64,000 nucleotides of DNA from Candidatus Fermentibacteraceae bacterium (GTDB taxonomy: Bacteria; Fermentibacterota; Fermentibacteria; Fermentibacterales; JCC-6): the NCBI GenBank assembly GCA_041686025.1, contig JAWLEP010000013.1:758-64757 (forward strand). The letters are read 5' to 3'. The position numbers were made by a program, and so were the translations under genes. Of this stretch, positions 780 to 33,336 are shown in pieces. The stretch's first letter is position 1. Each line of letters begins with the position of its first letter. The notes below the pieces were generated by a model. The model did not search any database and had not been told where the DNA came from. It was given only the letters and a program-made list of their open reading frames with translations.

Positions 780-857
780 CAGGGCTCCGTTCCTGATCAA
801 CATGTATTTTGACTAAATCTACACTATATTCAGCTTAATATCCGCGACATGAAAATG

Positions 858-1238: not shown

Positions 1239-1270
1239 AAGGTTGGCGAGCCGACTGTTCGCCGACGAAG

Positions 1271-2290
1271 TCAGTCGATGAGGCCCATCTTCTTGAACTT
1301 TTCGTCGAAGGTCCGCAGCAGCTCGTTGTCGGGGTACCTGGCTATTGCTTCCTTGGTCAGCTTCGCGGCTTCCGGGAAGGAGCTTATCTGTATCTTCTCC
1401 CGGATTTTCTGGACGTAGGTGTCGGCCTCGCCGCCGGACTGAGTCGGTGTCTTCGAGGTCTTCTTCGGGGCCCGCTTGCCTCCTGTGGAACTCTCGATCT
1501 CCTCCAGGAGCTCGTCGAGGCCGGGAGCGTCGGGGTCCAGCTGGAACGCCTTTCTGGCGTAGGCGGTGGCCTTGCGGGGACTGCCATCGGCCAGGCCCTT
1601 CCGCGACAGGGCGATGGCCTTTCTGGCCTTGCGGGAAGACCTGTAGCGCTCGGTGAGCTCCAGGACCCTCTCGTCCTCGGGGGCCATGGCCCGTGCCTGC
1701 TTGAGTGCCTTTACCGCCCGGGAGTCGTCCCCGGATCTCATAGCTTCTGCCGTGGTGTCCAGCAGGGCCTGAAGCTGCTCGGTTGAAGCCATAGGACCTT
1801 CCTTTTCGGTGGTTTCGGCGGATTCGGCCGGCTCCTCCCCGGCCGGGGCCTTCTCCTTCTTCGCGGGGGCGGGTTTCTCCTCCCGGGCCTCGGGTACGGC
1901 CCTCAGACGCCTAGACCTCCTTCGGCCTGGCTTGGGCTTGGCCTTCTTTTCCGGCGGGGAAGGCTTCTTCCCGGCTGCGGTCTCTTCTCGGGGCTTGGAG
2001 GACCTGGAGGCTTTGGTGCTCTTATCTTCGGTGGCCTTGCGCTTCTTTCGGGAAGGGCTCTTCTTCGCTCCGGACTTCTTCTCGGGCTTCGGAGAAGGCT
2101 CGGCCTCTTTCCGCCGGGCGGCGGCTGACTCCCGCTCTATCTGCAGTATGGCCTCCGTGACCGCGTTGCTCTCGGGGTCAATGGCCAGCGCCTTCTGCAG
2201 AAGCTGCAGGGCCTCCCGCCTGTGACCTCCCCTGAGCTCGGCCTTGGCCCGGCGGACCAGGCTCGCGACCTCTCTGTCTCTTCCGACCAA
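1271..2290 (-). CDS. TPR-like repeat protein with a central lysine/alanine/proline-rich (histone H1-like) low-complexity region.
   Basis: 339-aa ORF. It has TPR-like helices (ALQLLQKALAIDPES...; AYARKAFQLDPDAPG) flanking a ~100-aa KKSGAKKSPSRKKRK...KPKPGRRRSRR basic tract. Confidence 0.6.
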   Translation of the reverse strand: MVGRDREVASLVRRAKAELRGGHRREALQLLQKALAIDPESNAVTEAILQIERESAAARRKEAEPSPKPEKKSGAKKSPSRKKRKATEDKSTKASRSSKPREETAAGKKPSPPEKKAKPKPGRRRSRRLRAVPEAREEKPAPAKKEKAPAGEEPAESAETTEKEGPMASTEQLQALLDTTAEAMRSGDDSRAVKALKQARAMAPEDERVLELTERYRSSRKARKAIALSRKGLADGSPRKATAYARKAFQLDPDAPGLDELLEEIESSTGGKRAPKKTSKTPTQSGGEADTYVQKIREKIQISSFPEAAKLTKEAIARYPDNELLRTFDEKFKKMGLID

Positions 2291-2594
2291 TGGGTCTCCC
2301 TGCGATGATTCGGATGGAATCAGAGCCTCTCGCAGCCGAAAGCGAACACGGCTGCGGTGAACATTCCCGCCGAAGCTATCTACTAAAGTCGATTCGGCTC
2401 TCGGTCAAGTCCTCCCGAGGACTCCTGGAGGCCCTTTACCTTGGAATTGACGCAGGATGGGGATGCCAACATCTTAGCCGGACGTGGAGTGATTTGAGGC
2501 GTATTGCAACCACGCGAAAAAAAGTGCTAAAAAGCCAATGCACGCCTCAGGCCGCCGACCGGCGGTTCCCGGAAAACCTGTGAGAGGTGCCCAA

Positions 2595-3755
2595 ATGCGT
2601 ACGTACTTTACCAGCGAATCCGTTTCCGAAGGGCATCCGGACAAGATCTGCGATCAGGTCTCGGATGCAATTCTCGACTCACACCTTGCTCACGACCCGG
2701 AGGCCCATGTAGCCTGCGAGACGCTGGTGACCACGAACTACGTAATACTCGCCGGCGAGGTCAAGAGCCACACCGAGGTGGACTACGAGAAGGTGGCCAG
2801 GCAGACCATCCGGGACATCGGCTACTGCATACCGGACCTGGGATTCCACTACAGCGAGAACACCGTAGACGTACGGATCCATGCCCAGTCGCCCGACATC
2901 GATCACGGGGTCTCGGGCAACCTGGGAGCAGGTGACCAGGGCCTGATGTTCGGTTACGCCTGCAACGAGACCGGAGCGCTGATGCCCTACCCCATACAGC
3001 TGGCCCACAGACTGCTGGAGCGGCTGTCGGGCCAGCGCCGATCGGGGGAGCTGGACTGGGCCAGGCCCGACGCCAAGAGCCAGGTAACGGTGGAGTACGA
3101 CAACGGCAGACCCGCGGGGATCGCCGAGGTGCTGATGTCGGTCCACCACGCTCCCGACGCCGACCAGGAGCAGATGTCCGAAGAGGTGCGAGAGAAGGTG
3201 ATAGAGCCGGTGCTGGAGAACTGCCGGCCTTCGCTGCCCTGGTCGGGCCGTCTGCTCTACAACCCCTCCGGGAGGTTCGCCATAGGCGGGCCCCACGGCG
3301 ACACAGGCCTCACCGGCCGCAAGGTCATCGTGGACACCTACGGGGGCTCGGGCCGGCACGGCGGAGGAGCTTTCTCCGGCAAGGACACCACCAAGGTGGA
3401 CCGCTCGGCGGCCTACATGGCCCGTCACATAGCCAAGAACCTGGTGGCCGCAGGGATCGCGGACCGCTGCGAGATACAGCTGGCGTACGCCATAGGCAAG
3501 CCCGACCCTGTATCCGTGCTGGTGGATACCTTCGGTACCGCCAGGGTGGATGACCTCGCCGAGGTGGAGCTGGCCGTGAGGGACATCTTCCCCCTCAAGC
3601 CCTACGAGATCATCGACTACCTCGGGCTGAGGAAGCCCATATTCAAGAGGACCGCGGCCTTCGGCCACTTCGGACGGGAGCCCGGGGATGACGGCGCATT
3701 CTCCTGGGAGCGGACCCACAGGGTCGAGGACATCCGCAAGAAGGTCCTGGGTTAG
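2595..3755 (+). CDS. metK: S-adenosylmethionine synthetase.
   Basis: Hallmark N-terminus MRTYFTSESVSEGHPDKICDQVSDAILD, plus GGGAFSGKD and DTYGG motifs. The track ORF 2538..3755 probably starts at the internal ATG ~2595. Confidence 0.95.
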   Translation: MRTYFTSESVSEGHPDKICDQVSDAILDSHLAHDPEAHVACETLVTTNYVILAGEVKSHTEVDYEKVARQTIRDIGYCIPDLGFHYSENTVDVRIHAQSPDIDHGVSGNLGAGDQGLMFGYACNETGALMPYPIQLAHRLLERLSGQRRSGELDWARPDAKSQVTVEYDNGRPAGIAEVLMSVHHAPDADQEQMSEEVREKVIEPVLENCRPSLPWSGRLLYNPSGRFAIGGPHGDTGLTGRKVIVDTYGGSGRHGGGAFSGKDTTKVDRSAAYMARHIAKNLVAAGIADRCEIQLAYAIGKPDPVSVLVDTFGTARVDDLAEVELAVRDIFPLKPYEIIDYLGLRKPIFKRTAAFGHFGREPGDDGAFSWERTHRVEDIRKKVLG

Positions 3756-13422: not shown

Positions 13423-13455
13423 GTGACGACCCCCCCCCGAGGCTGGGTAGCAGAA

Positions 13456-13480
13456 GGGGGAAGGGTCAGACCCTTCCCCC
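13456..13480. terminator. GC-rich hairpin (gggggaagggtc-a-gacccttccccc) between two co-oriented minus-strand genes. Possible intrinsic terminator.
   Basis: 12-nt perfect arms. It is flanked by an A-tract on one side and a gttctttatggtt T-rich run on the other. Confidence 0.35.
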
Positions 13481-13501
13481 GTTCTTTATGGTTGTCTGAC
13501 T

Positions 13502-17952: not shown

Positions 17953-19047
17953 TCAGGTGTTCTCGGTGTCGGGTTGGTACTCCCGGGCCTTCTCGAGGCC
18001 CTGCAGGACCCTCAGGCCGCCCAGGGCCAGGGCCTCCATCTCCATCTCTCCGGGGTAGACCAGGACGTCGGCCAGGAAGCCCACCCGCTCCCTTATCCAG
18101 CCTACGAACCTCCTGTCGTAGGCGATGCCGCCGGTGAGGACGATGGCGTCCACCTCACCTGCGAGAACCGCCGCCAGGGCGCCGATCTCCTTGGATATCT
18201 GGTAGGCCATGGCCTGGTATACCTCCAGGGCCGTTTCGTCACCGTCGGCGGCCCTGTCCTCCACCTCGCGCATGTCGTTGGTCCCCAGGTAGGCCACTAT
18301 GCCTCCGCGGCCCTTTATCATCTTCTTGACCTCGGCCTCGGTCTTCTCGCCGCTGAAGCAGATCTTCGCCAGGTCGCCCACCGGAAGCCCGCCGGACCTC
18401 TCCGGAGTGAACGGCCCCTCGCCGTTGAGGGCGTTGTTCACGTCGATCACCCTGCCCCGGCGGTGGCAGCCTACGGAGATGCCTCCGCCCAGGTGGACGA
18501 CTATCAGGTTCATCTCGCCGTAGTCGCCCCCCAGCTCTCCGGCCGCCTTCCTGGCCACGGCCCGCTGGTTGAGGGCGTGGAAGATTGAGCGTCTGGCGAT
18601 ATCGGGATGGCCGCTGTAGCGGGCCAGGGGCTCCAGCTCGTCCACCACAACGGGGTCGACAATGAACGCCGGGCAGCCGGCCTCGGACGCCAGCTCGTCG
18701 GCTATGAGGGCACCCAGGTTGGAGACGTGCTCCCCCTGGACTCCCCTTCGCAGGTGCTCCTTCAACAGCTCGGTGACTCCGAATGTCCCGCCCTTCACCG
18801 GGTAGAGCAGGCCGCCCCTTCCCACCACGGCGTCCAGGCTGGAGATGGCGTAGCCCGATTGCTCCAGCCTGTCGCGTATGACGCCCTCCCGGAAGGCATA
18901 CTGGTCGATGATCTTCTCGAAGGGCTCAAGCTCTTCCCTGGAATGTGAGAGCTTCTCGCTCCATACCTCGCTGCCGTCCTCGAACAGGGATATCTTGGTG
19001 GAGGTCGATCCGGGGTTGATCGCCAGTATCCTTTTCGTTTCGGTCAT
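17953..19047 (-). CDS. buk: Butyrate kinase.
   Basis: [17 protein letters not shown]-terminus, HLGGGISVG, and acetate/butyrate kinase family C-terminal motifs. 364 aa. Confidence 0.9.
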
Positions 19048-19169
19048 CTTGCCTCCGTTTCAGGCCCCTCGGCCGCCAGAAAAGTGTTGCTGCAGCTGCT
19101 GGGAAGCGGTAATAGTCTAAGGCATGACGGCTGATATGGCCAGCTTGCGGACGAGGGGGGTCCCGAACG

Positions 19170-19697
19170 GTGAGCGGAGACAACCTGGAGACCTCCAGGG
19201 AGATGGAGATTCTGGAGAGGTCGGTGCAGAGGCTGGAGGAGCGCTTCCGACTGGAGAGGGAGGGCGCACTGGAGGACGGAAGCCGTGACGCCCTGCTCCA
19301 CCTGCGTGACCGCAGCAAGCTGTTCTTCTCCCCCGAGATCGAGAGGATGGCCAGGGAGCTGGCCCGTCTGTCCGCCGCCATCGACGGCGGCCAGGCCTAT
19401 GCGGCGGAGGTCAGGAGCGCCGCGGGGAAGGTGGGGAGGCTGATCGTCAGGCTCCGGGCCCGGTTCGTGGGCACGCCGCACAGGCTGCTGCGAAACGCCG
19501 ATCTGGTGCGGCGGGTGCACGACCGGGGCGGCTACTCCGGAGAACAGCGGCCCGAGGCCGCCGAAGACGAGGAGGAGGACGACCTCCAGCCCACCGATCC
19601 CCCGGTGGAGTGCCCCATCTGCGGCGAGATCCTCATGCGGAACGGGGATTTCACCCTCCTGTACTGCCCCGGATGCGGGGCCACCGAAAACCTCTAA
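19170..19697 (+). CDS. Hypothetical coiled-coil protein with C-terminal zinc-ribbon.
   Basis: 175 aa with a charged, helical N-half and a CPICGEILMRNGDFTLLYCPGCG CxxC...CxxC ribbon. It is divergent from buk. Confidence 0.5.
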   Translation: MSGDNLETSREMEILERSVQRLEERFRLEREGALEDGSRDALLHLRDRSKLFFSPEIERMARELARLSAAIDGGQAYAAEVRSAAGKVGRLIVRLRARFVGTPHRLLRNADLVRRVHDRGGYSGEQRPEAAEDEEEDDLQPTDPPVECPICGEILMRNGDFTLLYCPGCGATENL

Positions 19698-19723
19698 CGG
19701 TGCCTGACGTACGTCAGGCACCG
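19698..19723. terminator. Perfect 26-nt palindrome (cggtgcctgacgt|acgtcaggcaccg) starting 1 nt after the stop codon. Possible intrinsic terminator or operator.
   Basis: 13+13 nt perfectly self-complementary and GC-rich, immediately 3' of the taa at 19695-19697. Confidence 0.4.
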
Positions 19724-19730
19724 ATCTAAC

Positions 19731-19813
19731 AGGGTCAGACGTCAACTAGTCAACTATTTTCGTGTGCGGCCGGCCGATTGTCGAAAATAGTTGACTAGTT
19801 GACGTCTGACCCT
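19731..19813. repeat. Perfect 32-bp inverted repeat with AT-rich arms and a 19-nt GC spacer. Candidate operator, structured RNA or MITE-like element.
   Basis: Left arm agggtcagacgtcaactagtcaactattttcg (19731-19762). Right arm 19782-19813 is its exact reverse complement. The spacer tgtgcggccggccgattgt contains the ggccggcc palindrome. Each arm contains the direct repeat gtcaact-a-gtcaact. Confidence 0.75.
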
Positions 19814-19908
19814 GATCGGGGGAACGCCCCGCCGGGGCATTGCCTATATTGCCCGCGCACATACGAGACTGGCTCGAGTCATAGAGAACCCCTTCGGGAG
19901 GAGCCCCG

Positions 19909-21252
19909 ATGAAGCGAATAGATTCTTCCGCCCCCCGGGAGCCCGTATCCGCCGGCGACCTGTCGGCCATGACGGGTGAGACGGTGACCCTGCACGGCAT
20001 GGTGCAGAGGATCCGCAGACTGGGATGGGGGGCGTTCATCGTCCTGCGCCGGCACGACGGAATGGTGCAGTGCGTAATGGGCAGTGAGGGAAACGAGGAG
20101 ATACTGGACAGCCTCTCCGAGGAGCAGGCCGTGCGGGTGACGGGTACGGTGAAGGAGGCCCGTATCAAGGACACCTCCATCCATCCCCGAAACGCGGAGC
20201 TGGGGGTGGAGAGACTGGAGATAATCCACAGGCCGGCGGAGAGGGCGCCGGTGGACCTGACGAAGAAGCTCCTGGACCTGCACATCGACACCAACCTGGA
20301 CCTGCGCCCCCTGTCCCTGCGACATCCGGTGGAGAGAGCGCGCCTGCGGGTGGCCTCCGTCCTGGGGGAGCTCTTCTCCGACTTCCTCCGCCGCTCGGGC
20401 TTCACGGAGATACACACACCGAAGATCTGCTCCGCCGGCGCCGAGGGAGGGGCCAACATCTTCTCGGTGGACTACTTCGGCGAGAGGGCCTTCCTGGCCC
20501 AGTCGCCGCAGTTCTACAAGCAGATGGGCGTGGCGGTCTGGGAGAGGGTGTTCGAGGTGGGCCCGGTCTTCCGGGCGGAGCCCCACCAGACCACGCGGCA
20601 CATAAACGAGTACACCTCCCTGGACCTGGAGATGGGGTTCATAGAGGGACAGGAGGACGTGATGTCCCTGGAGGCCGCCTTCCTCCGCTGGGCCTTCCCC
20701 CGCCTCGAGGAAGTCTGCGCCTACGAGCTGGAGCTGCTGGCGGCGGACGTGCCGGAGATCCCGGATTCCATACCCTGCCTGACCCTGGCGGAGGCCCACG
20801 CGATGGCCGGAGAGGAGCTGGGAAGGGACTTCTCGGGCGAGCCGGACCTGGAGCCTGCCGAGGAGCGCGCCCTCTGCTCACGGCTGGAGGAGGAGACCGG
20901 AAGCGGCTTCGTCTTCGTCACCCACTTTCCCACCGAGAAGCGGCCCTTCTACGCCATGGACGACCCCGACGACCCCGGCCTGACGCTGAGCTTCGACCTG
21001 CTTTTCCGGGGCCTGGAGGTCACCACCGGGGGCCAGAGGATCCACGACTACGCCGCACAGGTGGCGAAGATGGAGCGGTTCGGGCTGGACCCCGCCGACT
21101 TCGCAGGCTACCTGCAGGCCCACAGGTTCGGCCTTCCCCCGCACGGGGGCCTGGCCATCGGGCTGGAGAGGCTTGCGGCCAGGCTGCTGCAGCTGGACAA
21201 CATCCGCCTGACCTCCATGTTCCCCAGGGACGTGAAGCGGCTCACGCCCTAG
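19909..21252 (+). CDS. aspS: Aspartate--tRNA ligase, archaeal/eukaryal-type (class IIb, ~440 aa, likely non-discriminating).
   Basis: OB-fold N-domain, class II motifs (FRAEPHQTTRH..., GGLAIGLERLAARLL motif 3) and the short 447-aa architecture. Confidence 0.9.
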   Translation: MKRIDSSAPREPVSAGDLSAMTGETVTLHGMVQRIRRLGWGAFIVLRRHDGMVQCVMGSEGNEEILDSLSEEQAVRVTGTVKEARIKDTSIHPRNAELGVERLEIIHRPAERAPVDLTKKLLDLHIDTNLDLRPLSLRHPVERARLRVASVLGELFSDFLRRSGFTEIHTPKICSAGAEGGANIFSVDYFGERAFLAQSPQFYKQMGVAVWERVFEVGPVFRAEPHQTTRHINEYTSLDLEMGFIEGQEDVMSLEAAFLRWAFPRLEEVCAYELELLAADVPEIPDSIPCLTLAEAHAMAGEELGRDFSGEPDLEPAEERALCSRLEEETGSGFVFVTHFPTEKRPFYAMDDPDDPGLTLSFDLLFRGLEVTTGGQRIHDYAAQVAKMERFGLDPADFAGYLQAHRFGLPPHGGLAIGLERLAARLLQLDNIRLTSMFPRDVKRLTP

Positions 21253-23538: not shown

Positions 23539-26500
23539 ATGCTGCAAGCCATAGCGGTAGCGCTTCTGCTGGCATCGAATCCGGCGGAGCAGATGACCGG
23601 TCCATTCGAACGGGTGCGGACCCCGCGGGCCCCGGCGGTGGAATATACCCCATCGGGGGCCGGGATGTCCCTCAGCTTCCCGGCGCCCCGGGCCAGGGAG
23701 ACGGCCCACGGTCACATCGTCGAGTTTCCCGGCCTCCCCCTGCGGTCGGCAACCGGAGAGCCTCTTCTCCCCTACAGGCGCGTTGTCTTTCCCCTGCCCC
23801 CGCACGGGGAGCCCGAGGTGAGGCTGGAGGGGGCGCGGACCGCTGCCATGGCGCCTCCGGGAAGGCTGGCCATCACTCCCGCCCTCAGGGGGACGGGACT
23901 GGAGACGGTGGAGGACTACTCCATCCCGCTGCGGGAGGGGCCGGACTCCCGCATGGAGTACCGCGTGATGCATCTGGCCGGCTCCAGGGTTGCTGTGGTT
24001 GACGTGTATCCCTACCTCCCCTCGTCTCCGGGCTCGTACCTGACCTCGGCCCGGCTGTCCGTCACCTGGCCGGAGACTCCGGGATGGCGCAGGCTGGAGG
24101 AAGGGCCGCTGGCCGCCGTCTGTCCCCCCGGAGCCCTGTGGTGGCCGGGCCGGGGAGCGAAGGCGGAGAGCCCCTTCTGGGGCAGGCCCTGGGCCAGGAT
24201 GGAGATAGACCAGACCGGCGTCTACTGCCTGACAGGCGCGGAGCTGGAGGCAGCCGGCTGCCAGGTGACTGGGTCGCCGTCGTCCACCCTTCGCATGCTC
24301 ACCGGGGCAGGAGTGGAGTTCGACATCTTCGACAGGACCGAGGAGCAGCCGCCCCAGGAGGTTGCCGTCCGCGTTCTCGACGGCGGCGACGGCACCTTCG
24401 ACACCGCCGACTCGCTGCTGTTCTTCGCCAGGTCCCTGAACCGCTTCCTGCTCTCCGACGGCGGGACGCCCCAGGACGAGATCGCCCACGTGGGCCACGA
24501 GTACGATGACCGCAACGTCTACTGGCTGACCTGGGGAGGGCAGGAGGGCAGGACCATGGAGGAGGTGGGCGCCTCCCCCGACGGCTCCCCCGATTACGGC
24601 GACTCCTCGGTGCACCACCTCTGGATGGAGGAGGACTACGCCTTCAGCAACTACAACGGCTGGACCTGGTACCGCCTCTACCCCCGGCTGGCGCTCTACA
24701 TCTACCTGCAGACACCGGATGCCTCCGGGCCGGGCACCATCGACCTGTCCTTCGCGGTGCCCAGGGGAAACGCGCCCGTGGACGTGATCCTGGACGGCGA
24801 TACCCTGTTCAGCGGGACGATCCCGCCCTTCGGGAACCTCCAGCTGGACTCCGTCGACCTCGGGCCGGCACCCAGGCTGACGGTAAGGCCCGACACCGGC
24901 AGCTGGGAGGAGAACTACCTGGAGCACGTCTACGTACGCTATCCCAGGCAGCTCGCCTCCTGCGGAGGAAGACTGCTCTTCCCCCGGCTGGGCGACTCCG
25001 CCAGGAGGACGCTGGAGCTGGGGATGGCGGACCAGCCGCTACTGCCCCTGGACGTGAGCGACCCCCTCGACCCGCTGGTGCTCGACGGCGGCGCATGGTC
25101 CGACGGACGGCTGACCCTCTCGCACGACCTGGGGCCGGGCAGCGCCCTGTACCTGTGCAGGCCGGACGATCTGCTGAAGCCCGATTCGCTGTTTTCCGCG
25201 CAGCCGGGCCGGATAGTGGGGTCTCTGGAGCCCGTGGATGTGGTCCTCATAGCGGGCGGGGGCCTCCTACAGGCCTCCGAGCCGCTGCGGGCCCTCTACC
25301 AGCAGCGGGGCCGCAGCTGTCACCTGGTGAGCCTGCAGGAGGTTGCCGACGAGTTCGGCGCCGGAGTCATGCACCCGGGAGCCGTCAGGTCTTTCATCCG
25401 CCACATGCTGGACGTCTGGAGCGATCCGGTGGAGGAGGTGGTGTTCGTGGGGGACGGCCACTACGACGTGCTCAACCGAATCACCTCCAGCCCCTGTCCG
25501 TTCCCAGTCTGGTACTTCCACCAGTACTGGAACACGCTGGTCTGCAAGGACGACTTCTTCGCCCTCTGCCATGAGGGCCAGGAGGTCCCCGAGGTTCCGG
25601 TATCCCGGATACCGGCGGACGACCCCGCGCAGCTGGCCGGCATCATCTCCAAGCTGGCCGCCCGGGAGGAGTCGCTGCAGCCGGGCGAGTGGGCCTGCAG
25701 GGACCTGTTGATTGCGGACGATGAATGGGGCCAGTTCGGGGCCAACGAGAGCACGCACACCGAGCAGTGCGACATCATGGCCGACAGCATGCCCCCCAGG
25801 TACCGCAGGGAGAAGTTCTACCTGATCGAGTACCCCTGGCCGCCGGGTACAGACCCCGACCAGGGGGCGCACCCGGACAAGCCCGAGGCAAGGGAGGACC
25901 TGGTGGCCGAGATGAGCCAGGGCTGGCGGACGGCCTGGTACTTCGGCCACGGCTCCTACGGCCAGCTGGCCCAGGAGAAGCTGCTGCTATCCGCGGACGG
26001 CGTCCGGGTGACGGCGGGTCCGGCCTCGCCCGTGCTGCTTACGTTCTGCTGCAACTCCGGCGACTACTTCCTCACCGCCGACGACTGTCTGGCGGAGTAC
26101 TTCGTCCTGGCCCCCGAAGGGGGCTCCATCGCATCGGTGTCGCCCATAGGCGGGACGCTGGGTCCTCCGAACCTCTCGCTGGCCATGGCCATAGCCGAGA
26201 GCATAGAGGAGGGTGCACCGGCCGGTATCGGCTCCGCCCTCTGGGAGGCCAAGGTGGAGCTGTCCAACTCCGGCTCCGGAGGCAGGGCGTCCGACCCCAC
26301 CGGCAACAGCGCCGCCAGCCAGTACCACTGCCTGGGCGACGGGGGCGTCGTGGTTCCCGCGGCCTCCCATATGCCCGGGGGCATGGCCCTGGAGGGGGAT
26401 ACCCTGTTCCGGGGGAGGACCGCCAGGCTGGATCTGGGAGGCGGGGGAGCGTCCTCGCTGTTCGCCAGGCTTACCGAGAGCGGCTCGTACACCCAGTACA

Positions 26501-27363
26501 CGATGCTGGGCGGCACCACAATGACATACCTCCGCAACGGCGGCGCGTTCTACAACGGCAGCCTGGCCGGGGGCCAGGGCCCCATCTCCCTGGACGTGTT
26601 CGTGCCGGTCCAGGCGGACACCGGTCAGCTGGCCCGCTGCGGCGCCCTGGCGGTGGGTGGCCCCGAAGGGCTCTCTGCGGAGGCCCTGGAGTGGGTTTCT
26701 CTTCTGGATCGGGGCGGCTACGAGCCTGACTCCACTCCCCCGGAGGTCGATCTGTGGCTGGAGGGGGCCCGCGGCGAGGAAGAGCCGGCAGTGTGGGGCG
26801 GACAGGTGGTTCGCGCACACCTGGAGGACGAGAGCGGCATATGCGTTCTGGGAGGGGCCGCCGGCAGGTCCCTGCTGCTGAGCGTGGACGGTCAGGGCTT
26901 CGACGTGGGCGACCACTTCAGCTACCGGCAGGGAAGCTCCACCAGCGGCGACCTGGAGTACTCGCTTCCGGCCCTCTCGCTGGGCGAGCACAGGCTGATA
27001 CTGGCCGCCTGGGACGGAATGGCAAACGGCGTCCAGGACACGCTGGACTTCCAGGTGGTGGAGCCCCCCGAGAGACTCATCAGCCAGGTGCTGGTCTATC
27101 CCAATCCCGGGGACGGGGTGCGGGTCTTCAGCTTCCAGGCCACCTCGCCCGGCAGTGTTGAGGCTACTGTCTACACCGCCTCCGGAAGAGCCGTCTGGCA
27201 CGGAACCTCCGACTGCTCCATGGGCTACAACCAGCTGGTGTGGGACGGAAGGGACGATGACGGCGACCGTCTGGCGTGCGGGACCTACATCTACCGGCTT
27301 CGCATGGAGAGCGACCAGGGAGGAGCCGGCGAGAAGGTGGGCCGGCTGGTGGTGATCCGGTGA
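23539..27363 (+). CDS. Giant secreted peptidase C25 (gingipain/PorU-like, clan CD) family protein with T9SS C-terminal sorting domain. Paralog 1.
   Basis: Signal peptide and the clan-CD dyad context WYFGHGSYG (His-Gly) and LLTFCCNSGDYF (hydrophobic block plus Cys). The C-terminus QVLVYPNPGDGVRVFSFQ...GTYIYRL...VVIR is a Por_Secre_tail-like CTD. 1274 aa. Confidence 0.75.
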   Translation: MLQAIAVALLLASNPAEQMTGPFERVRTPRAPAVEYTPSGAGMSLSFPAPRARETAHGHIVEFPGLPLRSATGEPLLPYRRVVFPLPPHGEPEVRLEGARTAAMAPPGRLAITPALRGTGLETVEDYSIPLREGPDSRMEYRVMHLAGSRVAVVDVYPYLPSSPGSYLTSARLSVTWPETPGWRRLEEGPLAAVCPPGALWWPGRGAKAESPFWGRPWARMEIDQTGVYCLTGAELEAAGCQVTGSPSSTLRMLTGAGVEFDIFDRTEEQPPQEVAVRVLDGGDGTFDTADSLLFFARSLNRFLLSDGGTPQDEIAHVGHEYDDRNVYWLTWGGQEGRTMEEVGASPDGSPDYGDSSVHHLWMEEDYAFSNYNGWTWYRLYPRLALYIYLQTPDASGPGTIDLSFAVPRGNAPVDVILDGDTLFSGTIPPFGNLQLDSVDLGPAPRLTVRPDTGSWEENYLEHVYVRYPRQLASCGGRLLFPRLGDSARRTLELGMADQPLLPLDVSDPLDPLVLDGGAWSDGRLTLSHDLGPGSALYLCRPDDLLKPDSLFSAQPGRIVGSLEPVDVVLIAGGGLLQASEPLRALYQQRGRSCHLVSLQEVADEFGAGVMHPGAVRSFIRHMLDVWSDPVEEVVFVGDGHYDVLNRITSSPCPFPVWYFHQYWNTLVCKDDFFALCHEGQEVPEVPVSRIPADDPAQLAGIISKLAAREESLQPGEWACRDLLIADDEWGQFGANESTHTEQCDIMADSMPPRYRREKFYLIEYPWPPGTDPDQGAHPDKPEAREDLVAEMSQGWRTAWYFGHGSYGQLAQEKLLLSADGVRVTAGPASPVLLTFCCNSGDYFLTADDCLAEYFVLAPEGGSIASVSPIGGTLGPPNLSLAMAIAESIEEGAPAGIGSALWEAKVELSNSGSGGRASDPTGNSAASQYHCLGDGGVVVPAASHMPGGMALEGDTLFRGRTARLDLGGGGASSLFARLTESGSYTQYTMLGGTTMTYLRNGGAFYNGSLAGGQGPISLDVFVPVQADTGQLARCGALAVGGPEGLSAEALEWVSLLDRGGYEPDSTPPEVDLWLEGARGEEEPAVWGGQVVRAHLEDESGICVLGGAAGRSLLLSVDGQGFDVGDHFSYRQGSSTSGDLEYSLPALSLGEHRLILAAWDGMANGVQDTLDFQVVEPPERLISQVLVYPNPGDGVRVFSFQATSPGSVEATVYTASGRAVWHGTSDCSMGYNQLVWDGRDDDGDRLACGTYIYRLRMESDQGGAGEKVGRLVVIR

Positions 27364-27374
27364 CGGGGAGCTCC

Positions 27375-28109
27375 ATGGAGAGGGCGGCCGGACTTCTGGC
27401 GGACAGCCGCCGCCCGGTGGCCTTCACCGGCGCGGGCATGTCGAAGGAGAGCGGCATCCGCACCTTCCGGGGAGAGGACGGCTACTGGAGGCGGTACCGG
27501 GCGGAGGACCTGGCCTCGCTGGCGGCTGTACGCAGCGACCCCGAGACGGTGTGGCAGTGGTACGCGGAGAGGCTCCTGCACAACGCCGGGGTGGAGCCCC
27601 ACGCGGGCTACCATGCACTTGTGGAGGCCGAGCGGAGGATCGGATCGCTGCCGGTTGTCACCCAGAACGTGGACGGTCTGCACTCCCGTGCCGGCTCCTC
27701 GGAGGTCATCGAGCTGCACGGCAGCCTCCGGACCGCCTCCTGCCTCGATGAGCCCGGCAGGACCTTCGAGATTACGCCCCGGATGCTGGAGGACCTTCCG
27801 CCCCGGTGTCCCTGCGGCGCGGTGCTGCGGCCGGACGTGGTCCTCTTCGGCGAGGTCCTTCCGCAGGAGGAGATGAGCCGGGCGGCGGAGCTGGCCCGGA
27901 GCTGCGACCTGATGATGGTGGTGGGTACCTCCATGGTGGTCTACCCCGCCGCGGCGGTCCCCTATGCGGCCCTCCGCGCCGGGGCCGGGGTGATAGAGAT
28001 AAACCCCGAGCCCACCGCACTCACCGGAGAGCCGGGGGTGGTCAGCCTGAGGGGCCGCGCCGGAGAGCTGCTGCCCGAGCTGATGGAAACCGCCTGGAGG
28101 GATTCATGA
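27375..28109 (+). CDS. cobB: NAD-dependent protein deacylase, Sir2/CobB family (sirtuin).
   Basis: Motifs VAFTGAGMSKESGIRTFRG, VTQNVDGLHSRAGS, VIELHGSL, and CPCG...PDVVLFGE. The start is likely the internal ATG ~27375 of track ORF 27276..28109. Its stop overlaps the next start (ATGA). Confidence 0.85.
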   Translation: MERAAGLLADSRRPVAFTGAGMSKESGIRTFRGEDGYWRRYRAEDLASLAAVRSDPETVWQWYAERLLHNAGVEPHAGYHALVEAERRIGSLPVVTQNVDGLHSRAGSSEVIELHGSLRTASCLDEPGRTFEITPRMLEDLPPRCPCGAVLRPDVVLFGEVLPQEEMSRAAELARSCDLMMVVGTSMVVYPAAAVPYAALRAGAGVIEINPEPTALTGEPGVVSLRGRAGELLPELMETAWRDS

Positions 28110-31100
28110 GAGCTATGCTTGCAGCGACGGTGCTGGCGATGGCCGCGGTCTCCGCCGGGGCCATGGATGTTACAGTAAGCGTCCCCCTGGGCGCTCCCTC
28201 CACTCTGGAGGGGGAGATGGGCGTCTCCCCCTGGGCCCCGGGCCTGACCCTGGCCGGGGAGCCCGGCGAGGTCCTGCTTCCCGTGCGCCGGGTCTTCGTG
28301 CCGGTGCCCCCCGGCAGCAGCCCCTCAGTCGAGGTCCGTCCCCTGGACGTGGTGCGTACGCGGGTACCGGATGGAGGCTGGGCCAGGGCCCCCATGCTGG
28401 TGGGAAGCGGGCTGGAGACCACCGCCGTTCCGGCGCCCCCCCGCACGTCCTCCAGGGGCCGGGCTGAGCTGGTGGGGGTCAGCCATCTGTTGGGCGTGCC
28501 GGTGGCCGTGGTGGACGTATGCCCGCTCTCTTCGGGGTCCATGGCCTCCTGGGCGAGCCGGGTGGAGCTTACCGTATCCGTGCATGACCGGTTCCCCGCG
28601 CCACGCCAGCTCCCTCCGGCGACCCTGGACGGGGTGCTGGCGGGTGACGGTCCGGTATGGGGCGGCGCCAGCCTGCAATGGCCCGAGAGCCCCTTCTGGG
28701 GCCGGCCGTGGGCCAGGCTGGCCGTGGGTTCCACCGGCGGCTACAGGGTCACCGTCTCCGACCTGGAGGACGCCGGCTGCTCCGTCTCCGGGGCCCCGGT
28801 GGAGACCCTGCGGATGCTCACCGGGCCTGCGGTGATGTTCGGCACGGACCCCTCGGTCCTGCACACCCCCCAGGAGGTGGCCATCGAGGTGGAGGACCTG
28901 GACGGAAACGGGCTGTTCGACGGCTCCGACAACGTGCGCTTCCTGGCGAGGGGGATAGAGCGCTGGATTCCGGAGGCCGACAGCCTGCGCTGGATGCAGC
29001 ACCGCTACGCTACCCACAACGTCTACTGGCTGACGTGGGGGGGCGAGAGCGGGGAGAGGGTGTCCATCGAGGACGCCTCCCCGGACGGCTCGCCCGCCTA
29101 CGGGCTCCCGGTTCCCTCCTGGAGCTTCCGGGAGGAGGAGCTGCAGTACCAGGCGGACTACGAGACCAGAACCGGCTGGGTGTGGGAGGTGCTGGAGGAC
29201 GGGGAGACCTTCCAGGCCACCCTGGAGCTTCCCCGGGCGGGGAGCTGGGACCTGAAGGCGCGCGTCCTCTCGCTGGGCACCGGCACCAGCACCGTGCGGC
29301 TGTCGGTGAACGGCCAGCAGGTGGCCCAGGAGACCTGGACCAACAGGCAGGTCCGGTGGATAGTGGCCCCGGACCAGCCGCTGCAGCAGTCCAACCAGGT
29401 GGAGGTGACCTTCTCCATAGAGGGAGGGGTAGACCCCTACCTGGCGGTGGACCTGTTCAAGGTGCAGTCGGCGCTTCCGGGAGGGGCCACTGACAGGCCG
29501 CTCTTCCCGGGGCTGTCGGCCCAGGGCAGGTACACCTTCTCCATGGACCGGATTCCCCAGGGCGGCCGGGTCTACGACGTCACCGACTTCCTCGGCCCGG
29601 TGAGGCTGGACGGCGTCCAGCCGGCGGGGGAAGGTGTTTCCTTCTCCGCGACCGTGGGCGACAGCACCCGCCTGCTGGCCCTCGCGGAGGATGACTGGCG
29701 GCTTCCCGACTCCATTGGGCCGGCCTCTCCCGGGAGGATCCTGGGCACCCTGGAGGAGGGCGACCGTCTCTTCGTGGCTCCCCCCTCGCTCCTCGACGGC
29801 GTCTGGGGCCTTGCTCAGATCAGCGAGCAGGCCGGGCTCGTTCCGGCGGCTGTGACCACCAGGGAGGTCTACGACGAGTTCAACGCCGGGGTGGCCGACC
29901 CCGGGGCCATCCGCTCCGCCGTGCGCTGGGGCCAGGACGAGCTGTCTCCCGGCGTGGAGGGTCTGGTCCTGGTGGGCAACGGACACTGGGACGTGAGGAT
30001 GAACACCGTCTCCACTCCCAGCCTGGTCCCGCCCTACACCCTTCTGGGCAATCCCTCCTCCGGGGAGGGGGTATGCTCCGACGACTTCTACGTCATGACC
30101 CATTCCGGGGACGTTCTGCCGGAGATGCCGGTGGGCAGGATACCGGCCGAGGACGCCACCGATCTGGCCTCCATCACCGCCAAGAGCCTGGCGTACGCGG
30201 AGGGGGCCTCCGCGGGGGACTGGGTCAACAGAATGATGTTCCTGGCCGACGACGAGTGGGGCAACGGCATGAACCAGAGCGAGACGGTCCACACCATCGA
30301 CTGCGAGAAGCTGGCCGAGGACCACGCACCCCGCTACGTCGACCGGGAGAAGGTGTACCTGATCGAGTACCCGTGGCCCTCCGGGGGTGGTCACCCCGAG
30401 AAGGAGGAGGCCCGGGAGGACTTCATAATGGAGTACAGCCGGGGGAGCGCCTTCATGGCCTTCATCGGCCACGGCTCCCCCAACCAGATCACCAACGAGA
30501 AGGTCCTGCGGGGATCGGACGTACCCTCGCTTACCAACGGCGCCAGGCTGCCCCTCACCTACTGGGGCACCTGCAACGTGGGGCAGTTCGACATACCGGG
30601 GTCCACCTGCATAGGGGGCAGGCTGGTAGCCTCCCCGGAGGGCGGGGGCGTGGCATCGGTGGCCGCCACCAGGGGCACCTTCAGCGGCCCCAACTACTCC
30701 CTGGGGGCGGCCCTCATCGACTCCCTGTACGGCTCGGGCGCCGATTACTCCATGGGAACGGCCACCTGGCTGGCCAAGATAGGCAACGCCTCCTACACGG
30801 GATCGGTACGCTACTACGCCTACCTCGGGCACCCCGACCTGTGGCTGATGATGCCCGATACGGCTCCCCAGCTGTCCCTGGCGGCTCCCCAGCTGCTCAG
30901 CGGCCAGACCAACTCCCTCCAGGGCGACGGCTTCGCCGGGCAGGGGCTGGCGGCCATCGAGGTCCGCGAGTCCTCCGTGGACACCGTATACACCACACTC
31001 GGCGGCAACATCATAAACTGGCGCAAGCCGGGAGGCCCCGCCTACCGCGGCACCGTGGCCCTGGACGCCGGCGGCTTCGGCCTGGAGGCCTTCGTTCCCC

Positions 31101-31864
31101 TGCAGTCCAGGACCGGAGGCCTGGCCAGGGCCGCGGCCACCTATCTGGGCGCCCCCGTCACCTCCGCGGCGGCGCTGGACCCCCAGCCCCTGGCGGAGGG
31201 AGACCCGCCGGAGGACTACAGCGGGCCGGAGATACAGATGTGGGCCCGGGGATACCGGGGGGTGGAGGAACCCAGGGTCAGCGGCGAGGTCACCGTGGAG
31301 GCGGAGCTGTCCGACAGCAGCGGCATCTGCTTCCTGGGCGGTGACGGGCGGTCCATCACCCTGTTCCTGGACGGCCAGGGCATCGACGTCAGCCGGGAGT
31401 TCTCCTACCACCAGGGAAGCTCCACCTCGGGAAGCCTGGAGGCGGAGCTGGAGCAGCTCTCCGACGGATGGCACACCATCATCCTCCGCTGCTACGACGG
31501 CGTGGGAAACATGTCCATGGACACCCTGCGGCTGGAGTCCCTGCAGGGCGAGGACCTGGCCATACAGCAGGAGCTGGTCTATCCCAACCCGGGCAGCGGC
31601 AGGAGGTGCTTCAGCTTTCGGGTCACCGCAGACGCGTTCGTGCGCATATCCATCTATACGGTGGCCGGCAGGCGGATACGCACCCTTTCCTCCGACTGCT
31701 CTCAGGGTTACAATCAGATCGTATGGGACGGGCTGGACGCCGAGGGTGACAGGCCGGCCACCGGCAGCTACGTCTACCGCATCGAGGCGGTGGCCTCCGG
31801 GAGCAGCGTCTTCGACACGGAGGCCGAGGAGATGGGAGTTCTGGCCGTGGTGGAGGGTGGTTAG
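28106..31864 (+). CDS. Giant secreted peptidase C25 family protein with T9SS C-terminal sorting domain. Paralog 2.
   Basis: Start MRAMLAATVLAMAAVSAGA (internal to track ORF 27806..31864). Motifs FIGHGSPNQ and LTYWGTCNVGQFD. It is collinear with paralog 1 (shared blocks ...ESPFWGRPWAR..., ...NVYWLTWGG..., ...KVYLIEYPWP...). CTD is ELVYPNPGSGRRCFSFR...GSYVYRIE. Confidence 0.75.
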   Translation: MRAMLAATVLAMAAVSAGAMDVTVSVPLGAPSTLEGEMGVSPWAPGLTLAGEPGEVLLPVRRVFVPVPPGSSPSVEVRPLDVVRTRVPDGGWARAPMLVGSGLETTAVPAPPRTSSRGRAELVGVSHLLGVPVAVVDVCPLSSGSMASWASRVELTVSVHDRFPAPRQLPPATLDGVLAGDGPVWGGASLQWPESPFWGRPWARLAVGSTGGYRVTVSDLEDAGCSVSGAPVETLRMLTGPAVMFGTDPSVLHTPQEVAIEVEDLDGNGLFDGSDNVRFLARGIERWIPEADSLRWMQHRYATHNVYWLTWGGESGERVSIEDASPDGSPAYGLPVPSWSFREEELQYQADYETRTGWVWEVLEDGETFQATLELPRAGSWDLKARVLSLGTGTSTVRLSVNGQQVAQETWTNRQVRWIVAPDQPLQQSNQVEVTFSIEGGVDPYLAVDLFKVQSALPGGATDRPLFPGLSAQGRYTFSMDRIPQGGRVYDVTDFLGPVRLDGVQPAGEGVSFSATVGDSTRLLALAEDDWRLPDSIGPASPGRILGTLEEGDRLFVAPPSLLDGVWGLAQISEQAGLVPAAVTTREVYDEFNAGVADPGAIRSAVRWGQDELSPGVEGLVLVGNGHWDVRMNTVSTPSLVPPYTLLGNPSSGEGVCSDDFYVMTHSGDVLPEMPVGRIPAEDATDLASITAKSLAYAEGASAGDWVNRMMFLADDEWGNGMNQSETVHTIDCEKLAEDHAPRYVDREKVYLIEYPWPSGGGHPEKEEAREDFIMEYSRGSAFMAFIGHGSPNQITNEKVLRGSDVPSLTNGARLPLTYWGTCNVGQFDIPGSTCIGGRLVASPEGGGVASVAATRGTFSGPNYSLGAALIDSLYGSGADYSMGTATWLAKIGNASYTGSVRYYAYLGHPDLWLMMPDTAPQLSLAAPQLLSGQTNSLQGDGFAGQGLAAIEVRESSVDTVYTTLGGNIINWRKPGGPAYRGTVALDAGGFGLEAFVPLQSRTGGLARAAATYLGAPVTSAAALDPQPLAEGDPPEDYSGPEIQMWARGYRGVEEPRVSGEVTVEAELSDSSGICFLGGDGRSITLFLDGQGIDVSREFSYHQGSSTSGSLEAELEQLSDGWHTIILRCYDGVGNMSMDTLRLESLQGEDLAIQQELVYPNPGSGRRCFSFRVTADAFVRISIYTVAGRRIRTLSSDCSQGYNQIVWDGLDAEGDRPATGSYVYRIEAVASGSSVFDTEAEEMGVLAVVEGG

Positions 31865-33026
31865 CTTGGATCGGGAAGCCGGAGGACCCGCAGCCGCTGA
31901 CGGCAAGGTAGCCTGGCTCTGGAGCCAGGTGGAGGGGGCCCGGGAGAGCGGCGAGGTGGACGTGGCCCGGGAGAGCCTCTCCCGGCTGCTGTCCGACCCC
32001 AGGGTGAGGGGCACGGCCGACGAGGACCTGGCCATGCTGCACCTCTGCCAGCTGGAGCTGGAAGAGGGCCGGGTGGCCGAGGTAGCCAGGCGCATCACCG
32101 ACTTCTCCTGGAACGTCCGTCCCGGTCCGGCGGCGCTCCTGCTGGCGGCGGACGTCTACATGAAGCTGGACTGGTTCGCCCAGTCGCTGGAGTCCCTGGA
32201 CCGATACCTGCGGGAGATCCCCGACGACCTGGACGCCAGGCGCAAGAAGGGCCTGGTGCTGCTGATGCTGGACCGGGACGACGAGGCCGAGCGGGCCCTG
32301 CTCTCCGTGGCCCGCCGGGAGCGTTACCGGGTTCCGGCCACCCTGGCCTACCTGGCCATGCTGGAGGCCAAGAACGACCGGCTGGAGGAGAGCCTTCACC
32401 TGCTGATGCAGGCCAGGGACCTGGCCCCCTTCGACAGCCGCATAGAGCACACCCTTCTCCGGGTGGAGGCGCTGCGGGTGAGGCTTCGGCGCAAGGCCCT
32501 CTCCCACGACGGCCTTCCCCTGGAGGACGTGGTGGGGGGCATGGTCTCGGGGATGATGGAGCTGCACGGATACACCGAGAAGCAGGCCAGGTACGCCCGG
32601 GACGTATGGAACCACTTCTGCGCCCTGGAGACCCCCACCGGCCGCAAGCCCGCCATCTGGGCCGCCGCGCTGGAGTACGCCGTGACCCGCAGCGGCCCGC
32701 ATCTCTCCCAGGAGGAGCTGGCCGAGGAGTACGGCGTATCCTCCTCCCAGCTGCGCGAGCACTACAAGACCCTCACCTCCAAGGTGGACCTCCAGGCCTC
32801 CGGCGACCTGCTGGCCGAGGCCGCCAGCCAGGGCTCGGCCCTGTCCAGCCTGGTGCACCGCGAGGAGCTGGCCGACGTCCTGGCCGGGGCCGTCCGCAGG
32901 CTGTCCGACTTCGAGACCGAGGCCGAAGCGGTGGCCTGGATCTTCGACAGGATGGACCCGGCCGGCGAGGAGGAGCGCCGGGAGGTGGAGGATTTCCTCC
33001 GCTTCATCTGGAACCGCCGCCGCTAA
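31857..33026 (+). CDS. TPR-repeat protein (possible regulatory/HTH C-terminal region).
   Basis: Only the part after the C25 stop is credible, starting at GTG 31857 or TTG 31866. It has TPR-like helices (ADVYMKLDWFAQSLESLDRYL; ATLAYLAMLEAKNDRLEESLHLL) and LSQEELAEEYGVSSSQLREHY. Confidence 0.5.
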   Translation: MVSLDREAGGPAAADGKVAWLWSQVEGARESGEVDVARESLSRLLSDPRVRGTADEDLAMLHLCQLELEEGRVAEVARRITDFSWNVRPGPAALLLAADVYMKLDWFAQSLESLDRYLREIPDDLDARRKKGLVLLMLDRDDEAERALLSVARRERYRVPATLAYLAMLEAKNDRLEESLHLLMQARDLAPFDSRIEHTLLRVEALRVRLRRKALSHDGLPLEDVVGGMVSGMMELHGYTEKQARYARDVWNHFCALETPTGRKPAIWAAALEYAVTRSGPHLSQEELAEEYGVSSSQLREHYKTLTSKVDLQASGDLLAEAASQGSALSSLVHREELADVLAGAVRRLSDFETEAEAVAWIFDRMDPAGEEERREVEDFLRFIWNRRR

Positions 33027-33032
33027 CCAAGC

Positions 33033-33193
33033 GGGGACGGAGATTAAATCCACCAAAAGGAACCTGAAGGGACGGAGTTTAAGTTCATCAAGTACAGTGC
33101 GCCAAAAGCTTGGATTGTCGCAAGCCCTGAACTTGATGAACTTAATCTCCGTCCCCGGTTGACTTAATCTCCGTCCCCGGTTGACGTCCCCGG
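33033..33193. repeat. Cluster of four copies (both orientations) of the motif GGGGACGGAGATTAA / TTAATCTCCGTCCCC. It includes a 25-bp inverted repeat and a 22-bp tandem direct repeat.
   Basis: Copies at ~33033-33047 and 33069-33083 (forward), and 33141-33155 and 33163-33177 (reverse). IR arm 33069-33093 pairs with 33131-33155 (1 mismatch, 37-nt spacer). The unit cttaatctccgtccccggttga is tandemly duplicated at 33141-33162 and 33163-33184. It begins 6 nt after the TPR stop and ends ~145 nt upstream of ppdK. Confidence 0.7.
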
Positions 33194-33336
33194 GGCGTTT
33201 GTTGGCCGCGGCGGGGCAGTTGCATATATTCAATGCTCCCGAGGAGCCTCAGCCGTCCCCGCGGCCGGGGATCAGTCAACAAATCATGCGGTGCCATGGG
33301 GCGCCGGCATCCGTGCGGAGAGTGGTGGTTGAAGAG

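Follow-up and report, generated by a model that had tools for sequence, protein, structure and literature searches.

What is the element that occupies the gap between a zinc-ribbon gene and aspS in an uncultured Fermentibacteraceae genome: a part of aspS control, or the remnant of a mobile element? The question is raised by a 64,000-nucleotide (nt) stretch of a Candidatus Fermentibacteraceae bacterium (GCA_041686025.1, contig JAWLEP010000013.1; hereafter the window), in which the open reading frame (ORF) of a zinc-ribbon protein is separated from aspS by a 26-nt palindrome (unit A) and an 85-nt hairpin (unit B). Unit A (19698-19723) consists of 13+13 nt in perfect inverted order, CGGTGCCTGACGT|ACGTCAGGCACCG, and begins right behind the TAA stop codon of the ORF (19695-19697), exactly as an earlier note, made from the sequence alone, had described it. 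Unit B has a left arm (19730-19762, plus strand, identified in a repeat search; CAGGGTCAGACGTCAACTAGTCAACTATTTTCG), a G+C-rich loop of 19 nt (19763-19781; TGTGCGGCCGGCCGATTGT, which contains GGCCGGCC) and a right arm (19782-19814, plus strand) that is the exact reverse complement of the left one (100% complementarity). The inverted repeat is therefore as perfect as the note had claimed, and its arms are one base longer (33 nt) than the 32 bp given there. The arms are 57% A+T in a window of ~65-70% G+C; each holds GTCAACTA twice in tandem (left-arm boxes at 19741-19756), and in the left arm an outer G-rich part, AGGGTCAG, precedes the two boxes. From the right arm to the aspS start at 19909 the distance is 95 nt. 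The A+T-rich arms, their internal direct repeat, the 19-nt spacer and the distance of about 95 nt had all been pointed out before, and each held when measured. We conclude that the hairpin is very probably a mobile or repeat-derived insertion that the locus can do without; with less assurance, we favour reading it as a non-autonomous mobile-element remnant akin to miniature inverted-repeat transposable elements (MITEs) and REPINs (hairpin-forming doublets of repetitive extragenic palindromes, REPs), that is, a head-to-head dimer of terminal inverted repeats (TIRs) of the Y1/TIRYT kind, and not an aspS regulator.

A structure of this kind was said to be highly improbable by chance, and neither the inverted-repeat nor the palindrome pattern was found in 100 dinucleotide-preserving shuffles. 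The only other repeat of comparable size in the 64 kb lies at 33069-33155. Predicted fold energies are -63.3 kcal/mol (RNA) and -40.1 kcal/mol (DNA) for the 85-nt hairpin, and -21.4 kcal/mol as RNA for unit A; the 221-nt region that contains them has a folding z-score of about -10.5 on either strand relative to shuffles. The two stems are followed by ATCTAAC and ATCGGGGG, respectively. In size and structure the hairpin is that of a small non-coding element with TIRs: 85 bp, perfect 33-bp TIRs, and no ORF that fits inside.

The evidence that carries the first conclusion comes from relatives (percent identities below are those of the zinc-ribbon ORF relative to the window; L and a number denote individual loci). 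In relatives at 63-89% identity the gene order is methylmalonyl-CoA mutase, butyrate kinase, zinc-ribbon ORF, aspS, a gene for a 312-amino-acid protein and an FtsX-type permease; six of the nine relative loci that reach past the zinc-ribbon ORF have aspS directly downstream on the same strand (63-89% identity), while the other three (42% identity) have it further downstream on the opposite strand. The intergenic region measures 211 nt in the window. It is 174 nt in both L042 (89%) and L044 (86%), each of which has one nearly perfect hairpin, and 175 nt in L050 (88%), whose single hairpin is decaying; it is 110 nt in L045 and L046 (77%) and 99 nt in L047 and L048 (63%), where the hairpin is absent and the site reads TAGC-GCCCCCGGCCCCGATCGGGGG... 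Thus the comparison of aspS upstream regions that the earlier note had proposed places the hairpin only in the sub-clade of at least 86% identity, between the stop codon of the ORF and a native promoter-like box of aspS. This box (TTGCCTATATTG) is kept in relatives with and without the hairpin, and the same holds for the downstream block CATTGCCTATATTGCCCGCGCACA and for GGGAGGAG-N5-ATG, conserved in all of them; CCTATATTG and GGAGGAG-CCCCGATG are invariant even in the hairpin-free L045 and L047. Since the gene order, the box and the ribosome-binding site persist where the hairpin is absent, it is an insertion in dispensable DNA and no conserved part of aspS control. The series of presence and absence at one locus shows that the insertion is polymorphic.

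Another observation to emerge from the relatives is the way in which the hairpin varies. The loop is its most variable part, with substitutions and indels in L042/L044 and again in L050, whereas the arms remain alignable. Over four variants, 31 arm pairs can be compared, and 97.6% of the cells are paired; six of the 31 pairs are changed on both sides, every one of them in the window copy, and G-U pairs occur only at the pair nearest the loop. A homologous element is present in L050 and L051, with one nt deleted from its left arm, two mismatches there and yet another loop; these arm lesions look like neutral decay. Strict Watson-Crick symmetry, a free loop and the decay in L050 fit better with inverted repeats of a repeat family, maintained at the level of DNA, than with a selected RNA structure. 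The arms would then be replaced or homogenised as units.

To which repeat family might the arms belong? Scans of two large collections of genome and metagenome contigs with an exact 18-mer, GTCAACTAGTCAACTATT, returned 31 loci, most of which look like chance matches or unrelated CAACTA-type tandem motifs. Six loci of low G+C content share the context GGGGACGGA-GTCAACTAGTCAACTATT, and the two that come from named genome records (L002 and L003) are metagenome-assembled genomes (MAGs) of Omnitrophota. The 18-mer core of the arm is identical to the Omnitrophota terminal repeat GGGGACGGAGTCAACTAGTCAACTATT (18/18 nt), to which partial flanks and shared variants are added. In L002 and L017 the repeat and its reverse complement flank an ORF of 334 amino acids whose product starts with MPRDKRLNIIGGIYH and includes PNHIHL and YLYQNRY; in L002 the repeats are found at ~1563-1588 and ~2612-2637 around this ORF, and L017 is similar. 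The ORF matches Y1_Tnp (PF01797, E = 5.7e-12) and, weakly, Bac_DnaA_C (E = 5.7e-4, below the Pfam cut-off); with the NCBIfam model of REP-associated tyrosine transposases (RAYTs) it scores 66 bits, below the cut-off of 80. The repeat also occurs in an internally deleted derivative of ~150 bp (L003, 2312-2460), as a head-to-head dimer (L008, 654-692) and as solo copies (L018, L020). The second repeat of L017 reads GTTAACTAATTAAC, which is the same C-to-T variant as in the A-type arms of Fermentibacterota. The flanking repeats of these Omnitrophota loci (L002 1563-2637, L017, L003, L008) read GGGGACGGAGTCAACTAGTCAACT, and extra GGGGACG units stand outside them at a spacing of 12 nt. Among the other matches, the unrelated metagenomic loci L001, L012, L021 and L023 show (GT)CAACTA-type repeats, three or four in tandem, a short way upstream of genes; possibly they serve another system as operator arrays, and we judge them to have no connection with the hairpin.

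Judged by their layout, the Omnitrophota loci represent the published TIRtron/TIRYT arrangement, in which long terminal repeats enclose RAYT-like Y1 genes, the motif GGGGWSAS is common to some of these repeats, and repeat families are met with as singles, dimers and clusters (Di Nocera et al. 2013, PMC3733652); the loci also match Y1 subclass 2.1, which has a Bac_DnaA_C or helix-turn-helix C-terminus (Quentin et al. 2018, PMC6006769). The window arm (AGGGTCAG) fits GGGGWSAS at 7/8 positions, as do the Omnitrophota repeat and the units of a second repeat locus near 33 kb in the window (GGGGACGG). At this second locus (33028-33195), the only other long A+T-rich hairpin region of the window, two forward and three reverse units of the GGGGACG type (GGGGACGGAGATTAAGT..., GGGGACGTCAAC) form a cluster of five, within which lies a hairpin whose arms are 25 nt long (33069-33155). 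The locus sits between the stop codon of a gene for a TPR/helix-turn-helix protein (31341-33026) and the promoter-like box of ppdK (pyruvate phosphate dikinase). In its units GGGGACGGAG, identical with the outer part of the Omnitrophota repeat, is combined with GTCAAC, which stands behind three of them; the cluster is probably of the same superfamily as the hairpin arms. On this evidence we lean, by a modest margin over even chances, towards placing the hairpin with the Y1/TIRYT repeats. Since no partner gene was seen in Fermentibacterota, this connection with Y1 transposases is a putative one.

The window differs from its relatives in that it contains two units. In the 86-89% relatives a single unit stands between CTCTA(G/A) and ATCGGGGG; in the window a 'TAAC-unit-GATC' stretch occurs twice in tandem, the first copy without the A+T-rich core and the second with the core and with another outer stem, in the layout TC-TAAC(unit A)GA-TC-TAAC(unit B)GA-TC-GGGG. 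At the junctions (19693-19730, plus strand) each unit has TCTAAC before it (19693-19698 and 19725-19730) and GATC behind it, and the repeat search found an 18-nt direct repeat there (78% identity, spacing 32). L042 and L044 read TAG-CGGTGCCTGACGT-TAACTAGTTAACTATTTT-loop-AAATAGTTAACTAGTTA-ACGTCAGGCACCG-ATCGGGGG, that is, CGGTGCCTGACGT and ACGTCAGGCACCG around a core of 56 nt at the site of unit A; unit A is the exact outer stem of their hairpin minus this core, and so an emptied or unfilled copy. Unit B lies in the same outer flanks as the relatives' hairpin (TCTAA ... ATCGGGGG) and its core is homologous to theirs, with CAAC for their TAAC on both arms; its outer stem, AGGGTCAGACGT, likewise departs on both arms from their GGTGCCTGACGT. 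The two units may well have arisen by tandem duplication across the TC microhomology, as the order of their junctions suggests. We also considered replication slippage between self-complementary motifs (ACGT, GTTAAC) as an origin of the palindrome: its products would be CCTGACGTCAGG or ...GACGTTAACGTC..., neither of which is the observed GACGTACGTC. Simple slippage would leave another junction.

One further arm was encountered at an unrelated locus, next to an insertion sequence (IS). The contig L033 (GCA_051748265.1), reached via its identical aspartyl-tRNA synthetase, is 99.92% identical to the window from 19792 onward only; what precedes that point is a DDE_Tnp_1 transposase gene, represented by its 3' end, and a non-coding stretch of 175 nt whose last letters are ...CGTTTTCGGATGGACAC, the IS terminus reading ...GGATGGACAC. 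The left contig of this MAG, L035, runs through the ORF, palindrome, left arm and loop into CGAAAATAGTTGAC and breaks off at 19795. The start of the one at 19792 and the end of the other at 19795 place the IS in the right arm, with TGAC (19792-19795) as the interruption point and a putative 4-bp target duplication; we infer the left junction of the IS and this duplication from the two contig ends. The transposase is of the ISNCY family (NCBIfam NF033593), its relatives P0005 and P0039 scoring above the cut-off. L034, from another sample, carries a second copy at the same position in the arm, with a transposase that is 98% identical; this copy ends in ...GGATGGGCAC-TGACTAGTTGGCGTCTGACCCTG, beyond which lies unrelated DNA beside a Zn_ribbon_8 gene. 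Its arm end, TGACTAGTTGgCGTCTGACCCTG, has the same outer stem as unit B of the window and is 13 nt away from the stop codon of the neighbouring gene, so a B-type arm exists at two or more loci. The IS is seen over positions 1-739 of L033 and 1-1043 of L034, and its presence in the arm of a strain 99.9% identical to the window is a polymorphism at strain level.

At both loci, then, the IS interrupts the arm at the identical nucleotide: either the IS targets the hairpin, or a composite of hairpin and IS moved as a unit. The ISNCY element may accordingly be one that uses the hairpin as a preferred target. A search for the left end of the Fermentibacterota IS with an N-terminal transposase fragment gave one distant match only, and no orthologous empty site for the L034 locus was found among the retrieved loci. 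Insertion sequences that seek palindromes or stem-loops are known: the related IS1182 family has been described as including palindrome-targeting members, and IS1272, which belongs to it, was shown to target stem-loops (PMC5678879), and REPs can likewise serve as IS targets (PMC3733652). The present case is similar in that an IS5-related DDE insertion sequence (ISNCY) lies inside the arm at two loci; it differs in that the IS divides a hairpin that persists, with a putative duplication of 4 bp, whereas IS1272 replaces its hairpin.

Several results weigh against our assignment of the hairpin to the Y1/TIRYT repeats, or against its mobility, and we gather them here. With tblastn and the Omnitrophota protein, no Y1 transposase homologue was detected in the window and ~150 kb of Fermentibacterota loci. 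The identity of the 18-mer was the search criterion, and outside it only 6/9 positions agree, with a gap; it is therefore the common architecture and the common variants that speak for homology. To GGGGWSAS the A-type arm (GGTGCCTG) conforms at only 5/8 positions. The arms are not themselves palindromic (the self-complementary sites of CAGGGTCAGACGTCAACTAGTCAACTATTTTCG are 6 nt long, GACGTC and ACTAGT) and have no GTAG tag, so they are not classical REPs. There is no target-site duplication: the flanks read ...GATCTAA | element | ATCGGGG, without a direct repeat at the ends, and the repeats of TCTAAC and GATC belong to the tandem duplication of the whole unit. No further full hairpin copy was found in the window or in the Fermentibacterota loci examined, and exact-match scans of the collections yielded no Fermentibacterota copy, although they missed the window's own element too and hence give no measure of copy number. 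L033 might be a chimeric contig, against which L034 speaks. Apart from these points, scans of viral contigs with degenerate arm patterns gave no match, and a literature search with the motif strings found no paper. Many copies scattered through the genome would have made the element a generic MITE, according to the earlier note; that part of the test which concerns the window was run and gave one full copy in 64 kb, while the part that concerns the collections stayed with exact matches that did not recover even the window sequence. Together with the additional arm in L034, this is the present count, and both A- and B-type variants of the arm exist.

How does the hairpin compare with known families of small repeats? 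TIRtron repeats are the closest (PMC3733652, PMC6006769): they too are long, non-REP TIRs with a G-rich outer motif (GGGGWSAS; here AGGGTCAG) that occur between genes as singles, dimers and clusters. The core of the arm is identical to repeats that flank Omnitrophota genes with Y1_Tnp and a DnaA_C-like helix-turn-helix; a dimer (19730-19814) and a five-unit cluster (33028-33195) occur in the window, and solos (L018, L020) and a dimer (L008) occur in Omnitrophota. Unlike the TIRtron repeats, the hairpin is found in Fermentibacterota DNA that shows no TIRYT gene over the part examined, where the number of copies is at best low and the A-type arms fit the motif poorly. With REPINs (Bertels and Rainey 2011, PMC3116915) it shares an inverted pair of short repeats around a short spacer that forms a non-coding, intergenic hairpin of ~85 nt, as well as a presumed Y1 transposase as partner; its arms, however, are not imperfect palindromes and lack a GTAG/GTGG tag, and hundreds of copies per genome are a trait of REPINs. 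Bacterial MITEs (Correia/NEMIS, RUP, ERIC and others) resemble it in being small, non-coding, gene-adjacent elements with TIRs and a strong hairpin that are polymorphic between close relatives. They differ in that the present element is almost all TIR (33+33 of 85 nt), shows no detectable target-site duplication, and has a tyrosine (HUH) rather than a DDE transposase as its suspected partner. Of the options that had been offered for the element, that of a MITE-like relic is the one we favour: the hairpin is absent in the 77% and 63% relatives and variable between lineages, an arm recurs at a second locus (L034), and its core matches transposon repeats in another phylum.

Bearing these likenesses in mind, we hypothesize that the element entered its site in the ancestor of the sub-clade of at least 86% identity. 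Its arms would be TIRs of the type that flanks Y1 (HUH, IS200-like) transposase genes with a DnaA-like helix-turn-helix, and a Y1 enzyme would have spread the hairpin in trans, probably by seamless excision and insertion of a single strand. The tandem GTCAACTA boxes are likely protein-binding sites, perhaps for the helix-turn-helix of the transposase. No dedicated role in aspS control would be left for it; at most it might act as a stable 3' hairpin on the upstream transcript. The missing target duplication and the exact relation of filled to empty site at GACGT|ACGTC fit single-strand transposition of the HUH type. An extension of this scheme, which we consider rather doubtful, is that the A+T-rich core by itself (~56-59 nt, (C/T)AACTAGT...ACTAGTT(G/A)) is mobile and moves seamlessly in and out at the palindrome centre GACGT|ACGTC, without duplication or footprint. 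On this view one outer stem would be seen empty in the window palindrome and filled in L042/L044. Were this so, the locus would supply natural filled-versus-empty evidence for 'peel and paste' single-strand movement of TIR dimers by TIRYT-type Y1 enzymes, would widen the range of such a system to Omnitrophota and Fermentibacterota, joined by a common DNA motif, and would suggest that an ISNCY insertion sequence homes to a single nucleotide position of the hairpin. To our knowledge, mobility of TIR repeats has never been shown experimentally in any system.

Y1-associated TIR repeats have been little studied, and the locus offers a natural series: absent (L045, L047), filled (L042, L044), decaying (L050), duplicated, emptied and refilled (the window) and IS-interrupted (GCA_051748265.1). 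Such a series could help to trace, within an uncultured phylum, the origin of these hairpins, their changes and their attraction for insertion sequences. For annotation, the element is better labelled as a repeat or mobile-element remnant than as an aspS regulator.

Of the explanations that compete with a TIR dimer of the Y1/TIRYT kind, the one that survives best is a co-opted structure at the 3' end of the zinc-ribbon ORF transcript, either a terminator or a barrier to 3' exonucleases, as REPs and some MITEs are. The palindrome and the hairpin begin right after a stop codon, the arm of L034 lies 13 nt from the stop codon of its neighbour, the 33-kb cluster is also behind a stop codon, and for REPs and MITEs a location mostly downstream of genes and an effect on mRNA stability have been reported (PMC3733652). 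Against this, neither stem is followed by a T-run and the terminator scan was empty, and the relatives live without the element. We regard such a role as unlikely; it is compatible with an origin as a mobile-element remnant and supplies no alternative origin.

A second alternative turns on the insertion sequence. Might the ISNCY element of L033 and L034 have the arms as its TIRs and have given rise, by internal deletion, to the 85-bp element? The left end of the IS would then read CAGGGTCAGACGTCAACTAGTCA followed by GTGTCCATCC. The outer 23 nt of the arm do stand directly behind the IS in two independent copies, and we at first took this shared 23-mer for the IS terminus; the ends of L038 and L039 (63% amino-acid identity) ruled this out. 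These related elements, which lie on long contigs, end at ...GGATGGACAC and are then followed by short flanking direct repeats of their own, and over their last ~21 nt they show homology with the part of the Fermentibacterota IS that adjoins the 23-mer on its inner side, which means that the 23-mer is target DNA, i.e., hairpin arm. Furthermore, the arm has no similarity to the IS terminus: its sequence is not equal to the terminal ...CGTTTTCGGATGGACAC and lies outside the IS. In L035 the left arm has no IS sequence adjoining it. We hold this explanation to be improbable. The relatives themselves (L038, 2261-3939; L039, ~453-3676) end in GTGTCCATCC...GGATGGACAC, and their flanking direct repeats vary in length, being CTAG or TA in L038 and TAGTGA in L039. 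The L038 copy lies within an imperfect palindrome (TTTTGGCCTAG / CTAGCTAAAA), and a DDE_5 element interrupts the copy in L039.

The earlier note had also proposed that the hairpin is an operator for a dimeric regulator or an RNA attenuator or processing hairpin. Put in its strongest form, this makes it a cis-regulatory element for aspS, acting either as an operator on four GTCAACTA boxes bound by a dimeric or tetrameric regulator or as an attenuator in the leader RNA. Four identical 8-bp boxes, inverted two plus two, do lie 95 nt upstream of aspS, the hairpin is very stable, and the complementarity of its arms is maintained in three lineages. On the other hand, the 77% and 63% relatives lack the hairpin and retain the gene order, the box, the leader and the ribosome-binding site, so the operator option is not supported. 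The hairpin also lies upstream of the conserved TTGCCTATATT box, and thus would be outside a leader transcribed from that promoter; its arm recurs at an unrelated locus, a sister strain has it broken by an IS, and in L050 it is in decay. As to RNA, an Rfam search of 19000-20500 at permissive E-values gave microRNA-type hairpin matches only, the best with 32 bits against a threshold of 65, and the matches listed up to E=10 include no T-box; the scan of 19500-20100 showed no site resembling a terminator. The check by Rfam and folding that had been asked for thus revealed a strong fold but no Rfam family above its threshold, and the attenuator option is likewise not supported. A dedicated role in the control of aspS is, in our estimate, very improbable.

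Perfect inverted repeats are a classic artefact, and several contigs stop inside this one; yet an assembly artefact, here a fold-back chimera, deserves hardly any credence, given that the repeat is internal to the 64-kb window with different genes on either flank, that independent assemblies reproduce the sequence (the NCBI MAG contig L035 and, from other samples, the Logan contigs L036, L037 and L032), and that three relatives, in ENA, JGI and Logan assemblies, carry complete homologous but non-identical hairpins at the same site. The k=31 Logan contigs end inside the arms at 19757 and 19791, in approximate agreement (2 and 6 nt) with the breaks at ~19759 and ~19785 that we derived by hand for a 33-nt perfect repeat in a k=31 graph.

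The genes on either side are as follows. The zinc-ribbon ORF (19170-19697, plus strand) encodes 175 amino acids and matches no Pfam family; an acidic linker is followed by a C-terminal CxxC...CxxC zinc ribbon (CPICG...CPGCG). Its homologues are 40-99% identical, the only one that has a source name is from Candidatus Fermentibacteria, and the protein of a near-identical contig is named Candidatus Fermentibacterota. Wherever a locus shows its upstream side, the ORF adjoins a butyrate kinase gene on the opposite strand. aspS (19909-21252, plus strand) encodes a class II aspartyl-tRNA synthetase of 447 amino acids, with tRNA-synt_2 (E = 1.7e-71) and an OB-fold anticodon-binding domain; its ribosome-binding site, GGGAGGAG, is at 19896-19903. 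The box TTGCCTATATT (19840-19850, plus strand), of which CCTATATTG is invariant in the alignment of the relatives, is native sequence outside the element and a putative promoter. We also noted one weak promoter-like site on the minus strand inside the element. The motif TTGCNTATATT has two exact matches in the 64 kb (19840-19850 and 33220-33230) and two further matches with one mismatch elsewhere, against 0.15 expected by chance for all of them together. Each exact match lies ~25-40 nt downstream of an A+T-rich repeat locus and upstream of a housekeeping gene, aspS or ppdK, and the wider context is GGGGCA(N)TTGCNTATATT. Because it is conserved in hairpin-free relatives, the motif is probably a native promoter element of the lineage.

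Two other features of the window were recorded. An intergenic palindrome at 13454-13482, AAGGGGGAAGGGTC-a-GACCCTTCCCCCGT, is kept in the 63% relative L047 (4291-4319) as AAGGGGGAAGGGCT-c-AGCCCTTCCCCCGT, with both partners of the central pairs changed; its neighbours on either side in L047 are genes on the minus strand, and it may be a terminator or a protein-binding site. Further downstream (~23700-31300; L032, 3749-11462), two paralogous Peptidase_C25 (gingipain-like) genes for proteins of ~1250-1274 amino acids flank a SIR2-family gene and share stretches of ~65-78% nucleotide identity.

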